Shown piece by piece: positions 12,001-18,000 of a DNA stretch of 64,000 bases. The position numbers are program-made. The stretch lies in contig OY970343.1 in assembly GCA_963717525.1 (NCBI GenBank), positions 160,001-224,000 of the forward strand, given 5' to 3'. The stretch comes from an uncultured Methanoregulaceae archaeon (GTDB taxonomy: Archaea > Halobacteriota > Methanomicrobia > Methanomicrobiales > Methanospirillaceae). How positions within the stretch are numbered: position 1 is the first letter of the stretch; each line of letters starts with the position of its first letter.

Positions 12001-15000
12001 GTCGGCTTCGTTGACGGCGCCAAGCGCTACCTGGGCAACCTGTGCCCCGCCTCCGATGATGATCACCCGTGAACCGAAGATATCCCCAAAAGGCTGGAAG
12101 TTTTTCACGTCCCGGACAGACTTTATCGCTTCAAGATCGCGCACCAGCTGTTCGCGGTCGGGGCCCGGTTCGTATTCAATGTAGAGTTCTCCCATCCCTG
12201 CATAAGGGCCGGAATCGAAGATCTCTTGGTTAACCATGAGGATGTTTGCCCCGTGTTCGGCAATCACCGTCGCGATATCCCGCAGAACGCCTCGGGTGTT
12301 CTCTGCTATGATCCGCATCGCACAGCGTTCGGTTTCTGTTTCCATAACACCGGATGCGATAGCCGGGGATCGAACCCGGGTTAGAAGCTTGGGAAGCTCC
12401 TGTCCTGCCGCTAGACTACTATCGCTTGTAAATACCGCTCTATGATATTGCCTTATTTCGAAGATAAATATAGTGTTCCCTCAAAAGCCGGGCTGGTTTC
12501 TGGTCGATATTTTTATGAACGGCGGTGGAGCATACTATGAATACATTGCATGTGAATGTTTTCGCACCGGTTCCTGTAACAGGGCAAACATCCTCATAAT
12601 CAGAACTACATAATCACTCACCGGAGATAAAATCCATGAAACCACAATGTATTTTCCTGACACTTATGCTGGCTGTGGCAGTCATCATCCTGGCGTGCCC
12701 GGCACAGGCGGATTCAGGGACACCAGGAGTACTCTACCAGAGTAATTTTGTCACCGATCCCCACTGGACGACCAACAACCCCTCGTCAGATTACTGGGAT
12801 CCGACCGAGGAAATGTACCATTTCGCTATTCAGCCCAGTACCGGGAATTATGCGTACTCATCTCCCATCAACTACAACGGCGGATCGTTCACCCTGGAAT
12901 ATGATGTCATCATTGAGCAGATGGATCCTGGCGCAACATTCCGGATGGGCTTTACCAGTGACAATATGGACTTCAACAAAGGCCCCAACGTGATAACTGC
13001 GTTCACTAACTCAAAGTATGGCATGATCATGATCCTTCATACCGTCACCCAGAGTGCCATTCAAACAGAGGTTACCAGTGATACGTCCTCATATGGGGGA
13101 CCGACGGTCACGTACCAGTCTGAATACCACCTATCATGTCAAAGCTGATTACAACAACGATACGAATATCGTCACCGAAACCGTCACCAACAAACAGACC
13201 GGTCAGCTGCTCTGGAGTTACTATACGCCCTCCCCGTCCCCTCTCAAGGGTATGAACCGGGTCTATCTCGGCAATGTCGGCGATTATGGCACGATGGGCA
13301 TATATGCCGTCGGGTGGATCGATAACGTTCAGCTCATGGTACCGGCCTCCGCGACCCCGGCAACCCCGACCCCGCTGCCCATCTCGTCCCAACCTACGTA
13401 TGCCATTAACCAGACAACAATGGTGAGCACGCTTGCGACCTATACTCCCATCCCGACCGTTACCCATAAATCCCCGTTGTCCGAAATGATCGCGTTTGCG
13501 GCGCTTGGGATCATCGGAGTCATTGTTGTCGCGCGTTCTGCGAATAAGAAGAGATGAAGATGGTTCATGAGGTGCTCTGGCAACAACCAGCGCCTCCCCC
13601 GTAATTTTCTTTTTCCGTATCATTGGTCCGTATGATCCGGTTTTCCCGGAATAATATTGATGGCAGGATCTGTTACCTGAGCCACCGCATCGGGCAATTT
13701 TATTTTAGTAAAAAGGCGGGCTCGCTGATTGTTCCGTATGGTACCAGAACTTCGTTTTGAGATCCAAAATGCGATGGGGATCCTTAACTCCCTCATCCGG
13801 CACAGACCGGCTCAGGAAAGTTCACTGGTGAGCTTGTGAATCGCGATCGGTGTCTGGTGATTTTTACGGGAACCAAAAAAAAAAGAGTATGGGGTGGTTT
13901 TCCTAATGAAGCCTGGAGGATGTGCATCAGGGTTTTCCCGGCCGGATGGCTGCATGCTTTTTGCGCCTCTTCCGGGCATGTGTGGATATTTCTGCTCAAA
14001 TGCCTGTCAGACCGTCCGTTCCGCTCTCCATGGGTGGTTTACCGGATATCCGGAAATGGTTGCAGGTGTTGTGGTCAGTCGTTCGTACGGGTGCGTGGCG
14101 GGGCCGGATGCAAGGCCCGGTTGCGCAAGGTATGCGTCACTGCCAGCCGGGGCCTGCCCTGAGCCTCCGCCGGCAGTTACCTGCCCAACCGGGATCATGT
14201 CACCGGTTTTTGCAGCACCCACAGGATGTACCAGGAGGCCGATCATGAGCAGGAGCATTGCCGTTCCCATCAGGATCTTTCCGGTATCCATGCGAGTGCC
14301 TCCGTTTTGTTCTGTTCATGGGTCGGTGACACGCCGAAATGCTTCCCGGGTATCACCTGATCTCATAGTTACATGCAGAGCCACATATATTGCCCCCATG
14401 ATGACGGTTAGTCAATTGAACCTGCTGGTTACATGGTAGTTACGAAAAGTACAGCCCTTACAGAGGCATGTGATTGCATGCAGTACGTGCATAGGGTTAT
14501 AGGACGGCAAAGCGACGTACCTCTCAGGAAGAATATGGACCCTGCAGACAAATCTCCTACCATTGTCGTTGAGGATACGGAGGATTCTCTTGATGAACTC
14601 TCAGAATACCTGGACGTGCTTTCCAGCAGCGCCCGGCTCAGGATTGTGAAATTCCTCGAAAAGAAGCCCCGCGACGCGCGGGCGATCTCCCACGAGATCG
14701 AGACCAGCTACGAAAATACCAAAAAGCACCTTGACAAGCTCATGAGCATCGGGGTGATAAAAAAAGAGGCGGGCCTCGGGTCCCCCACATCCAAAGGAAT
14801 TCATCCGGTCTGGCAGTATTCCCTTGTCCCGGGGGGCCTGGAATCCATCATACGGAACCTCGGGCTTTTCTCCAACACACGGGTTCAGATCATCGGTGGG
14901 GAGATCTCACGGAGACTGGAATCGGTCAAAAACACGCTCTCCAAGGAAGTCCTCGGGAACGTTCCTGCCGTCATTGTCCTTGGCGGGTATGATGATGGCA

Positions 15001-18000
15001 GGACATTCCTGTTGAGGAATGACGGTGTGCGGGTTGGACGCAGCGATCCGGAGCGTCCTGCAGGTGCGACCGGAGACGGGGATGTCGAGATCTCCGGGAC
15101 GTATACTGCGGTAACCCGGATCTCAAAACCACATGGAAAATTTATCCAGAAAAAAGACGGGTGGTATTATGAAGACGCCGGGAGTACTGGCGGATCGGTA
15201 CTGAACAACGCGCGGCTGGAACGCAACGTGCCCACCGCTGTCCACGATGGCGATCTGCTCGAGCTTGCCAAAGGAGCGGGCGGGGCAAGGCTTCTGTTAA
15301 TTATCCCAAAAAACCCATAACCTCTGTAATCATGGTGAGCGGGCATGCCGGTGCTTCCTTTTGCCCCTTGCCATAACAGATGAATACGAATATGATCCAG
15401 AAAACCGTTACCCCGATCATGATGCGCCCTTCGGCCCTGGCCTTTTTCTGCTGTGCAACCGTGCTGCTCATGAGTGCGGCCTGCGTGCCTCCGGTATCCG
15501 GGGCACAATATGTCGTTGCACCCTCGGGGGGAAGTTTTACCAGCATCCAGAATGCGGTCACGTGGGCCTCCCCTCTTGATACTATTATCGTGTGGAGCGG
15601 GACGTACCCGGGCACGGTCAAAATTGACAAGAAGATCACGCTTCTCGGTCTGGACACCGGCGCGGGGGCGCCGGTCATTGACCCGGGAAATAAGGGGGCA
15701 GCTCTCGAAATTGATGCTGATGGGTGTACAGTCGAGGGTTTTACTATCCAGAACAGTGCGACAGCAAGCGGGATTCTTGTCACTTCTAACGGAAATACGA
15801 TCGAAAATAATACGCTCACCGGCAACGCGGTGGGAATCCAGATCTCTTCTTCAGACAGCAATTCCATTACCGGTAACAGCATCACGGGCAGCAGTCGTGC
15901 AGGCATTGTGCTCAGGAATGCAAAAAATAACCTGATAGAAGGAAACCGGGTGACACAAAACACCCTTGGGATATCGATCGACGACCTCTCTACCGCCAAC
16001 ACGATAACTTACAACACATTCTCCAATACCGAGAACGTCCTTTCGCGGGGTTCCGATCAGCAATGGGAATCGCCGTCTTTTCTCTCCTATGTCTATATGG
16101 GGCGGTCCTTTACCGGAAGGCTGGGAAATTACTGGAGCGATTACCGGGGCAGTGACCAGAACTCCGATGGTATCGGGGATACACCATATGTGGTGAGATC
16201 AGGGTTAATCCCCACGTCTGGAACTGCGGTCATCCCGAATGAGGTCGACCCTGCACCCCTGATGGATCCCATTGATTATTATCTGCAGATCCGGCCTGCG
16301 GTGTCAGGAACAGGCACAACACCTGTCCCGACCCCTCTCCCGGTGACAGCCCCGACCGGGCAGGGAACGTCACCTGCGGGTGCCGGATCCCCGGCCACAG
16401 GCGAGCGGGGACTGGTCACGCTTGTGGTGCTGATCCTGCTGATCTGTATCATCGGTGCTGGTGGGGTGCTCTTTATCCGGTCCCGTACAAACCGCGAGGG
16501 GCAGGTTCCTGACGCTCTGTCAGCGTCCGGAGATACGAACCCTCGTCCGGTGCCGGACCTGCGTGAAAAAGAAAAATCGCCGGGGAATAATCAGCAGTCT
16601 CAGGAGATCAGTGCAGAGGTAACCTCCCCCACCCTTGAGACCGAAATAGTTCCCGCACCAAGGGAAACTCCGCCGGCAGCAGGGCCCAAATGTTATTTTC
16701 CTCCCGAGCTCGAGAGCCGGTACGGGGATATCAGGCATATCGGCCGCGGGGGGGTGGCGCATGTCTTTGCCGCACACCGCAAATCGGATAACCTGCTGGT
16801 CGCCGTCAAGATCCCCATCAGTTTTGACGAAGTGACCGGCAAATGTTTCTTAAACGAGATCGCCGCATGGCAGACGCTCCGGCACAAAAATATCGTCGAG
16901 GTGCTCGAGGTTAACATCCTCCCCGTTCCCTATGTCGAGATGGAGTACGTGCCTGGATCGCTTGAATCGGTGGCAAAACCCCTGCCGGTTTGGAAGGCTG
17001 TGCACCTGGTGCACGGTATCGCAGACGGCCTCGCGTACGCCCATGCCCATGGCATCATCCACCGCGACATCAAGCCGCACAACATCCTCGTAACCGGTGA
17101 TTTTGTCCCGAAGATTACGGACTGGGGCATGAGCAAGGTTATCGCCACCACGATGGAGAAATCAAGCGTCGCCGGGTTTTCCCTCTCGTATGCCGCACCG
17201 GAGCAGGTGTCACCGGCCGAGTTCGGGAGGACGGACGTCCGTACCGATATCTACCAGCTGGGGGCACTCTTTTACGAACTGGTCACCGGATCGATACCGT
17301 TTGGAGGGGAGAGTATTGTGGAGGTCGGAAATGCGATTGTCAGGGAAGAACCGATACCCCCGACCGAATATAATCCCGATGCGGAGGCCGTTGAGAAGAT
17401 CATCCTGAAATGCCTCGCCAAGAATCCCGCGGACCGATACCAGACTGCCGGCGAGCTGCTGGATGCGCTGTCCCGCTATCTCGATGAGGATGATGAGTAA
17501 GGAATTACGGTTGGTTTAGTATGGCGGATAAACCAAAAACCTATGAACCTGCGACCTGCGGTCATTGCGGCGGAATCGGGTGCACCTACTGCAACAAAAC
17601 GGGAACCGTTCTCGTGCAGTCGCCCAAAAAGGCCTGTCCTGAGTGCGAAGGGGTCGGCTGTCTCTACTGCGGGTTTACCGGGTGGTCACACCCGAAAGGC
17701 AAGTACGACTAATACAGACTCACCGGAAGGCTCCCTCGATCCGGTGAGGAAGCACGCATTCCTCAAAACGTTTCAGGAAATACCGGTCGGTCATGCCGGC
17801 AACAAAATCCCGGGCAAGCCCGGCCGGAGAAGTTTCACGCAGGTAGTCCCGGCTGACCCAGGGAGCCTCGGTAAAGTCCGTAAAAATTTTCGAGCTGTGC
17901 CGGTCTGCTTCAATATCGGCGAGATAGGTCGAAAACAGGACGCGGTACATGGTCCTGATCTTCTCCCGCTCCGCGGTCAGTTTCGGGTTGTTGTAAATAT

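Follow-up and report, generated by a model that had tools for sequence, protein, structure and literature searches.

A conserved gene pair of winged-helix-FHA regulator and receptor-type Ser/Thr kinase in Methanomicrobiales, a candidate phospho-relay from cell surface to DNA

Described FHA systems and the methanogen gene pair

The kinase PknH has its catalytic domain at the N-terminus and its sensor at the C-terminus, and its partner, the regulator EmbR, carries a BTAD domain. In Mycobacterium tuberculosis the gene of this membrane Hanks kinase lies beside that of the regulator, which joins a winged helix to an FHA domain (PMC4238996), and phosphorylation is described as enhancing promoter binding, with cell-envelope genes as the output (PMC6213207). 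Bdellovibrio DgcB and actinobacterial GarA and OdhI have a conserved Thr, followed by hydrophobic residues at +2/+3, in an N-terminal tail that is disordered, and this motif is read by the protein's own FHA domain, which in DgcB is reported to bind the phosphorylated tail (PMC6733907). From the Sulfolobales, FHA proteins are described that have links both with Hanks kinases and with transcription, namely ArnA-ArnB with ArnC/ArnD and ST0829-ST1565 (PMC5007285, PMC6509490, PMC10470591). ArnA, a zinc finger joined to an FHA domain, is presented as a repressor that acts with the vWA protein ArnB and does not bind DNA alone (PMC10470591).

The gene pair considered here bears on how methanogens relay surface signals to transcription. 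Archaeal response regulators are reported to bind DNA rarely (in Methanomicrobia, 20 of 697 carry an HTH) and archaeal histidine kinases to be often cytoplasmic (PMC5847659), and a 2016 review knows of only one study on Ser/Thr/Tyr phosphorylation in methanogens (PMC5007285). The preliminary description had called such a unit undescribed in archaea. This holds for the architecture in the papers searched, among them few subscription papers and no supplements (an arCOG table or a review may list the fusion), and FHA does not occur in the main text of an archaeal transcription-factor census (PMC2872624). It does not hold for transcription control by kinases and FHA proteins as such, which is known in the Sulfolobales from ST1565-ST0829 and ArnA-ArnB (PMC5007285, PMC6509490).

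The window, that is the whole stretch of 64,000 nucleotides analysed, comes from an uncultured Methanoregulaceae archaeon and contains the two genes (Table 1), co-oriented as had been claimed and with a gap of 59 nt. The start of the regulator gene is favoured over an upstream ATG at 14433 because most relatives start 3-13 codons before a conserved Thr. In short-read contigs from three runs that span the stretch, and are possibly the source of this DNA, no difference is listed inside 14535-17500. We think it likely, from sequence and by analogy, that the pair constitutes a dedicated phospho-relay from cell surface to DNA; this agrees with the earlier reading of a transmembrane kinase with a DNA-binding FHA regulator, for which a tail threonine, a juxtamembrane motif and a predicted operator are independent support. 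For an abundant order of methanogens the pair offers a complete candidate that can be tested, with proposed kinase, phospho-acceptor, docking motif, operator, promoter geometry and targets.

Table 1. Features of the locus, in positions of the window
Feature	Position	Strand	Basis or remark
Divergent gene, small exported protein, 94 aa, predicted target	14007..14291	-	N-terminal hydrophobic signal
TATA-like element, points to divergent gene	14385..14390	-	starts 26 nt from main box
Weaker second box, adjoins TATA-like element	14396..14411	.	21 bp from main box
Main palindromic operator box, predicted (core AACC-N4-GGTT)	14417..14432	.	sequence statistics
Regulator gene, 261 aa	14535..15320	+	N-terminal tail (disordered), winged helix (ArsR fold), linker helix, FHA domain
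Thr9 codon, proposed phospho-acceptor	14559..14561	+	invariant tail threonine
Winged helix-turn-helix (HTH_5 aa 32-77)	14628..14765	+	Pfam, family alignment, PDB profile, fold match
FHA domain aa 141-258	14955..15308	+	Pfam FHA aa 166-244, family alignment, fold match
Receptor-type Hanks kinase gene, 706 aa	15380..17500	+	hydrophobic signal, outer beta-helix, TM, juxtamembrane linker, C-terminal kinase
Outer right-handed beta-helix (NosD/Beta_helix)	15503..16300	+	Pfam; AF2 pLDDT 94.7
Transmembrane helix aa 348-366	16421..16477	+	hydropathy 3.2
Candidate juxtamembrane docking threonines aa 416-424	16625..16651	+	inference from family
Kinase domain, catalytic residues intact	16727..17443	+	K477, E493, D563, K565, N568, D581 (DWG motif), P607-E608; each kept in 79 of 79 family kinases

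The comparison with EmbR-PknH drawn in the preliminary description is apt as an analogy and not as membership. The FHA domains match in fold (Z 14.5, rmsd 2.0, 96 aligned), and PDB profile hits to EmbR cover its FHA part only (aa 282-372). The methanogen regulator has an ArsR fold and 261 aa, whereas EmbR is OmpR-like (PMC6213207) and has 388 aa; Pfam gives an HTH_5-like and an FHA match in the regulator and none to Trans_reg_C or BTAD. A member of the EmbR/SARP-type family was therefore rejected for want of the OmpR-type helix and BTAD, although a C-terminal FHA domain and an adjacent kinase are present. The order of domains in PknH is reversed in all 79 methanogen kinases (sensor N-terminal, kinase C-terminal), and the methanogen output is predicted to be an archaeal TATA promoter. 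DgcB, GarA and OdhI are the top fold matches of the methanogen FHA domain (best DgcB, Z 15.8, rmsd 1.7, 98 aligned, with GarA tied within 1). Their tail directly precedes the FHA domain, whereas in the methanogen regulator the winged helix lies between; their outputs are cyclase activity or enzyme inhibition, that of the regulator is predicted to be DNA binding; and for DgcB no kinase had been identified, whereas the regulator has one adjacent. By analogy, we propose that the pair works like PknH-EmbR combined with a DgcB/GarA-type tail switch, as a member of neither family. An ArnA homologue was likewise rejected, as the regulator has neither zinc finger nor Cys and ArnA lacks a winged helix; the Sulfolobales FHA domain matches in fold with Z 14.0.

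Distribution, linkage and the kinase

The regulator was found in 88 of 121 genomes of the order, in keeping with the claim that it is present across most Methanomicrobiales (by family 20/22, 16/20, 12/12, 19/22, 19/22 and 1/22), and the multiple copies noted before are seen in 32 of the 88, with 2-4 matches each, some of them fragments. In a phylum-wide search a full-length regulator was found once outside the order, near a contig start in a 220-contig genome and possibly misbinned. To examine linkage, 80 regions were fetched around 129 matches and, with the window, gave 81 loci. A C-terminal Hanks kinase lies downstream in 79 of these, and the other two stop at a contig end; the kinase is within 487 nt of the best-matching regulator in 78 loci and follows a second, degenerate copy in one. 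Both genes occur in 87 of the 121 genomes, and a regulator alone in one, at a contig end. The earlier formula of one kinase and one regulator does not hold strictly: in three genomes the kinase is present and no regulator was detected, in several there are additional copies of the kinase, and at one locus the regulator gene is doubled. All counts given here, those for motifs and boxes included, overstate independence because the genomes are related.

Pfam assigns aa 113-257 of the window's kinase to NosD/Beta_helix and aa 450-688 to Pkinase (138 bits). The catalytic Lys, helix-C Glu, HxDxKxxN, DxG and APE are each present in 78-79 of the 79 family kinases, HRD is present in 70, and DWG replaces DFG, so that by sequence these are Hanks-type Ser/Thr kinases. 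Hydrophobic stretches lie at aa 13-31 and 348-366 in the window's copy; in the family at least one precedes the intact kinase domain in 79 of 79, with two or more in 77 and four or more in 44. The outer domain varies between kinases, as had been stated, and falls into 24 BLAST groups; among the 74 scanned, 22 have NosD and 5 have PEGA. No ligand is proposed for the window's outer domain because Foldseek gave weak matches only, to polysaccharide-acting beta-helices (best E 1e-4).

A distant, parallel pair exists in another archaeal phylum, where the kinase is adjacent in 15 of 24 loci, upstream or convergent, and the Thr lies in the linker between helix and FHA domain. Its relatives are scattered in Bathyarchaeia and Methanobrevibacter; a metagenome scan for the Bathyarchaeia type gave one 4.2-kb contig, on which no kinase was seen by eye. 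It is a tentative idea, to which we give slightly less than an even chance, that these pairs give archaea a modular Ser/Thr equivalent of two-component systems. Swappable outer domains would sit on one kinase family, one phospho-Thr motif would pass from the kinase linker to the tail of the regulator, and a winged-helix-FHA activator would use a tandem operator to switch on an envelope regulon; the pairs of the other phylum, with their scattered relatives, would be a second and distant version.

Winged helix, FHA domain and threonine motifs

The fusion of a winged helix to an FHA domain was borne out by Pfam, by PDB profile hits of the regulator family to ArsR-family structures (2p4w, 2oqg, 1r22) and by similarity in fold to CzrA (Z 10.7, rmsd 3.1, 93 aligned). 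The HTH_5 match lies just below the Pfam cut, as had been reported (21.2 bits against 22, or 0.8 bit under). These sequence and model comparisons support an ArsR-type winged-helix fold, and the recognition helix is nearly invariant throughout the family. A homodimer prediction for the regulator scored 0.22, below the mark of 0.42. Metal-sensing repressors of the ArsR/SmtB type have a Cys/His metal site and bind at a site that overlies the promoter. The regulator contains no Cys at all and its family no conserved Cys in the helix domain, NF033788 gives 23.7 bits against a cut of 55, and the predicted box lies upstream of the TATA-like element; on these grounds a metal-sensing ArsR repressor was rejected.

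The canonical FHA domain is a beta-sandwich that carries GR and SxxH blocks (PMC4238996), and the regulator agrees with it in fold and in both blocks. The Pfam FHA match scores 31 bits (cut 20.7). Of the FHA motifs earlier listed as kept, G-R (79/79), S/T-x-x-H (S/T 78/79, H 79/79) and S-T are indeed retained, but the wording S-T-x-G hides the loss of the canonical Asn of the NG block, a position held by Gly in 72, Ser in 4 and Asn in 2 of the 79 regulators. Arg169, His200 and Ser217 are invariant and Ser/Thr197 is kept in 78 of 79, and a family-specific insert near the binding loop carries an extra invariant Arg195. For ST0829, the Sulfolobus FHA protein, one Asn is reported among four residues required for kinase binding (PMC5007285). 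The tail Thr precedes an invariant Tyr59 by exactly 50 residues in 79 of 79 regulators and recurs in 80 of 80 further, partly overlapping loci and in 118 of 120 database homologues. It is never replaced by Ser, and the position after it is always hydrophobic within an otherwise variable, acidic and disordered tail (pLDDT <50 for residues 1-15), which the AF2 monomer leaves unplaced. In the juxtamembrane linker, Thr-[ILVM]-[ILVM] occurs in 51 of 78 kinases against 6.65 (max 14) in 1000 shuffles; the window's copy and 26 others are without this strict form. The residue before the Thr is the same in both partners in 9 of 54 pairs, which is not clearly above the 4.8 given by chance.

The missing Asn and the insert near the binding loop could indicate an FHA domain that serves as a non-canonical scaffold, with Thr9 as a structural residue in a short strand (the tail motif is strand-like), in a phospho-independent activator beside a kinase with substrates elsewhere. 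Shared history would be expected of adjacent genes anyway, and the correlation of regulator and kinase distances is only 0.47, with the same nearest neighbour in 53 of 77. We regard this as very improbable, given that the FHA residues named above are retained, that the tail motif recurs in the kinase linker and that the distant clade combines canonical FHA motifs, NG block included, with frequent kinase adjacency. The absence of Ser at Thr9 is also as expected from the preference of FHA domains for phospho-Thr (PMC10470591).

In the relay that we favour, a signal from outside or in the membrane, probably different between paralogues, would activate the receptor kinase, which would phosphorylate the Thr-hydrophobic motif of its own linker; motif enrichment suggests that the phosphorylated linker then docks the regulator's FHA domain. 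The kinase could next phosphorylate the like motif at Thr9, whereupon the FHA domain would switch to the phospho-tail, in cis or across a dimer, and the regulator would be freed from the membrane and rearranged. This tail switch, modelled on DgcB, GarA and OdhI, has by itself about an even chance of being correct. Sequestration at the membrane would use the same parts, and sequence does not give the direction of the switch: the phosphorylated linker would hold the regulator through its FHA domain until a signal or phosphatase releases it, the unphosphorylated form would activate and tail phosphorylation would turn it off. FHA proteins can inhibit their own kinase, as described for EmbR2 and MupFHA (PMC4238996), and a PP2C gene at the head of an operon under the box in several loci fits either sign of feedback. 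We consider this arrangement unlikely, as a tail Thr that is invariant and shares the motif is more readily explained as a substrate of the kinase, in competition for the FHA site, phosphorylated EmbR binds DNA more (PMC6213207), and DgcB is activated by tail phosphorylation (PMC6733907).

Predicted operator, promoter geometry and neighbouring genes

The palindromic box emerged from the Methanoregula set. Among 72 held-out loci, the best site reached at least 16 bits in 22 against 1.06 (max 5) with 100 permuted matrices, and 50 had no 16-bit box nearby. The exact palindrome was counted 143 times against 15 for the control in 86 regulator-positive genomes, and 17 against 14 in 33 negative ones; two genomes, G003 and G039, were left out, because the G039 sites belong to a dispersed repeat, and the enrichment remains without both. 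Box plus TATA-like element gave 56 against 9 in positive and 6 against 6 in negative genomes, and 17 of the 56 sites lie no more than 500 nt from a match to regulator or kinase. In many genomes an early pattern, used only as a lead, was no commoner than its reversed control, and the signal from a plain dyad count in the 350 nt before each of the 79 regulators was weak.

The TATA-like element stands at the same 26-nt offset in 62 of 64 box-bearing loci. Of 90 flanks, 10 have the TATA-like hexamer at offset 26, and of 112 flanks 21 do, the next best offset being found in 3 and 7 flanks; in the window's own genome 7 of the 16 top box sites have it. By sequence, the box tracks the presence of the regulator, clusters at its loci and is placed as archaeal activator sites are, activators typically binding upstream of BRE (PMC5512572). 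Ptr2, EarA and TFB-RF1 similarly have several sites immediately ahead of the core promoter, but are not described in that source as FHA-bearing or kinase-coupled (PMC5512572). It could be argued that the pair is real and the palindrome the site of another transcription factor, or part of a hairpin or repeat: the dispersed repeat of G039 has this 16-mer as its core (15 of 24 sites read), two good sites of box plus TATA lie in G080, a genome 99% complete in which neither regulator nor kinase was found, and many loci have no box nearby. We give this little credence, since the enrichment outlasts removal of the two genomes, sites occur at regulator loci in different gene contexts and several families, and a protein-binding site would fit both the 21-bp period and the fixed distance to the TATA-like element. 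A terminator reading was rejected on these last two points, and Rfam over 13500-14700 of the window gave two chance-level matches only. Counted against the relay as a whole are the Asn loss, the 27 of 78 kinases without the strict motif, the poor agreement between partners in the residue before the Thr, the orphan kinases, the box-less loci, G080, the tail left unplaced in the AF2 monomer and the lack of a locus-type PP2C match in the window's own genome.

On the relay reading, dimers of the regulator would bind the tandem boxes, which are spaced by 21 bp and lie directly before the TATA element, and would activate genes, many of which encode exported or surface proteins and an ABC exporter; the regulator may also activate its own operon in some lineages, and PP2C phosphatase would reset the relay where present. 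These proposals on phosphorylation, binding and transcription build on architecture, linkage, motifs, box statistics, geometry and neighbours. If true, the system would offer an inducible promoter for methanogen genetics. No Pfam family was found for the divergent 94-aa protein, inspection by eye revealed no recurrent vWA gene cluster among the 81 loci, and a locus-type PP2C was not found in the window's own genome at E 1e-30. A PP2C gene lies within the fetched region in 16 of the 81 loci, directly upstream in 11, and the box is often found ahead of genes for exported proteins.

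The regulator-kinase pair and its distribution

The window lies in a genome of 2.29 Mb in one contig, and the nearest named homologues are Methanoregula proteins. The preliminary description had paired a winged-helix-FHA regulator with a kinase composed of signal peptide, beta-helix, TM and Hanks domain, and both ORFs are indeed present with those domains. This regulator is the only one of its type in its own genome. In its AF2 model (pLDDT 78) a disordered tail (residues 1-15) leads into a winged helix, and a linker helix connects this to an FHA sandwich. By fold, the FHA part is matched by DgcB, GarA, EmbR and ArnA (Z 14-16) and the helix part by ArsR proteins (Z 10-11). 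The short-read contigs list no differences within either gene. Further upstream, short-read contigs of three runs have one base fewer at 13119, so the split of the exported-protein gene probably stems from an error in the assembly; another difference of one base is at 13874.

Features at and around the regulator-kinase locus
Feature	Position	Strand	Description
Upstream exported-protein gene	12636-13557	+	two ORFs (170 + 167 aa); relatives 307-326 aa
Divergent small gene	14007-14291	-	small exported protein; predicted target
Conserved stretch	14321-14361		self-complementary, strongly conserved; predicted leader of divergent small gene
Regulator ORF	14535-15320	+	261 aa; FHA domain, HTH_5 match 0.8 bit below cut
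Kinase ORF	15380-17500	+	706 aa; hydrophobic N-terminus, NosD-type beta-helix, one TM helix, C-terminal Pkinase

The spread over most Methanomicrobiales claimed earlier is borne out, with 129 regulator matches in 88 of the 121 genomes of the order, although one family is nearly without it (1/22). The kinase family occurs in 90 of these genomes, together with the regulator in 87. Linkage was read in 80 regions fetched from the 129 matches and picked to cover families and paralogues. With the window included, a kinase follows the regulator in 79 of 81 regions, in keeping with the adjacency first proposed, and the remaining two end at contig edges. All 79 kinases have intact catalytic residues and at least one hydrophobic stretch (four or more in 44). 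Their outer parts are as variable as had been suggested, forming 24 BLAST groups of which the beta-helix type is the largest (27); among 74 scanned, 22 matched NosD, 5 matched PEGA and 47 had no match above the cut.

A PP2C phosphatase gene lies within 16 of the 81 regions, immediately upstream in 11. Since PP2C of the locus type was not found in the window's own genome at E 1e-30, and PP2C also occurs in regulator-free genomes, it is optional. One region (L324:116-6597, genome G053) has two regulators: a canonical one with PP2C behind it, and one whose recognition helix is degenerate, directly 5' of the kinase. Orphan kinase-family members occur in regulator-free genomes (loci L322, L323), some of them soluble, or 900-1100 aa long with different outer domains. 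The window's genome has further Ser/Thr modules (loci L200, L201, L202): one soluble kinase with amino-acid permease, PP2C and PII-like genes, recognised by eye, and two clusters of vWA, PP2C and kinase genes (vWA identified once by Pfam, once by eye). Across 401 genomes from the phylum, the regulator in full length is limited to the order, except for one contig. A 4.7-kb contig (L264, G471:C17) of a genome titled Thermoplasmata has a regulator 71% identical to that of the window, and it is probably a misbinned Methanoregula contig.

Tail threonine, kinase linker and a proposed relay

By an alignment-free measure, Thr9 lies exactly 50 residues ahead of the invariant Tyr59 in 79/79 regulators, a spacing kept in 80/80 additional, partly overlapping loci and in 118/120 homologues. 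Within the low-confidence tail it is the sole invariant residue past Met1; the positions around it are variable, with acidic residues ahead and a hydrophobic residue at +1 in all. In the linker that joins the last TM helix to the kinase domain, 51 of 78 kinases (one skipped) have Thr-[ILVM]-[ILVM]; 1000 shuffles that preserved composition averaged 6.65 and never exceeded 14. Of the 124 hydrophobic pairs in these linkers, 56 have Thr in front and only 10 have Ser, Ser and Thr being equal in frequency there. The window's own kinase has the motif in looser form only, and none was seen by eye in a small sample of three kinases from regulator-free genomes.

We infer a relay, in each of its steps, in which a signal would activate the kinase and a phosphorylated linker Thr would dock the regulator through its FHA domain. 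The docked regulator would be phosphorylated at Thr9, its FHA site would pass from the kinase linker to its own phospho-tail, and the released regulator would activate at tandem boxes until PP2C resets the relay. Parts of this have precedent: EmbR is phosphorylated by its neighbour PknH via FHA and then binds promoters more strongly (PMC6213207, PMC4238996), and DgcB is activated through capture of its tail phosphate (PMC6733907). The main doubts on the regulator side are the missing FHA Asn and the sign of the switch; on the operator side, that most loci have no box close by and that one regulator-free genome has sites; and on the counts, the relatedness of the genomes.

Putative operator box and predicted targets

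In 64 of 80 upstream regions, mostly of Methanoregula loci, a palindrome with the core AACC-N4-GGTT recurs, with weaker flanking copies at a 21-bp period. A matrix built from these palindromes found sites of at least 16 bits in 22 of 72 held-out loci (1.06 expected, maximum 5), positioned upstream of the operon or of its PP2C gene, or directly 3' of the kinase and before the next gene. In the 88 positive genomes the exact 16-mer was counted 185 times and its reversed control 18 times; leaving out two genomes, one of which has it inside a dispersed repeat, gives 143 versus 15, and the 33 negative genomes give 17 versus 14. That repeat, of ~70 bp in genome G039 (L204-L218), contains the perfect palindrome and was read at 15 of its 24 places; two copies, in tandem, separate a regulator from its kinase. 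This may be chance, or a mobile repeat spreading operator sites. Genome G003 has 18 palindrome sites.

In 62/64 training loci a TATA-like hexamer begins 26 nt from the edge of the box. The same offset is seen in 10/90 and 21/112 flanks of two other sets, which peak again at 47 (26 + 21), and at 7 of the best 16 own-genome sites. Box and TATA together number 56 versus 9 in positive and 6 versus 6 in negative genomes; for 17 of the 56, a regulator or kinase match is no more than 500 nt away. Placement upstream of the BRE is characteristic of archaeal activator sites (PMC5512572).

Six of seven predicted own-genome targets open with a hydrophobic stretch or consist entirely of one (by eye), against 12% of all ORFs (hydropathy cut). 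In other genomes the first ORF has a strong N-terminal hydrophobic stretch at 10 of 30 loci read, where it encodes a CARDB, DUF11, DUF4382 or small Cys/Gln-rich protein. An ABC transporter cluster, its ATPase and permease identified by eye, begins with the CARDB gene. At most of the remaining loci, from one genus, the first start opens no clear ORF. In one genus (L301-L303, L305-L310) box and TATA precede a conserved ~40 nt in which no ORF is clear; this may be a small RNA or a leader controlled in the same way. The conserved stretch in the divergent small gene's predicted leader has no Rfam match, and leaders of several other targets look hairpin-like too.

Known systems and distant relatives

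The kinase-regulator system is real and is specified well enough for testing. It resembles PknH-EmbR in its way of working, but the type of helix, the set of domains and the topology of the kinase place it outside that family. It shares the tail logic of DgcB, GarA and OdhI and differs in its DNA-binding output, and it is distinct from Sulfolobales ArnA-ArnB (PMC5007285, PMC6509490, PMC10470591). In the open-access article texts searched, we found no description of the methanogen system, nor did PMC2877116 and PMC13736083 yield one.

Among 1.84 billion representatives a profile search found distant relatives that match over the full length, the named ones from Bathyarchaeota and Methanobrevibacter; many of these relatives keep an N-terminal Thr and the FHA insert. 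Thermoplasmatota are among the lead members of ESM Atlas HTH + FHA clusters. A distant helix-FHA protein is present in 19 of 300 further genomes from the phylum to which a genome titled Thermoplasmata belongs, and a Hanks kinase lies within 1.5 kb at 15 of 24 such loci. These proteins keep canonical FHA motifs, with Thr motifs (by eye) in the helix-FHA linker, not the tail; those beside multi-TM Hanks kinases (L265-L288) number up to four per genome. Bathyarchaeia-type relatives (P0145, P0147, P0154, L289) keep the tail Thr and G-R and have lost the FHA Asp-x-x-Ser-Thr block. No kinase was seen on the one contig found for them, and one is a fusion with DUF4263.
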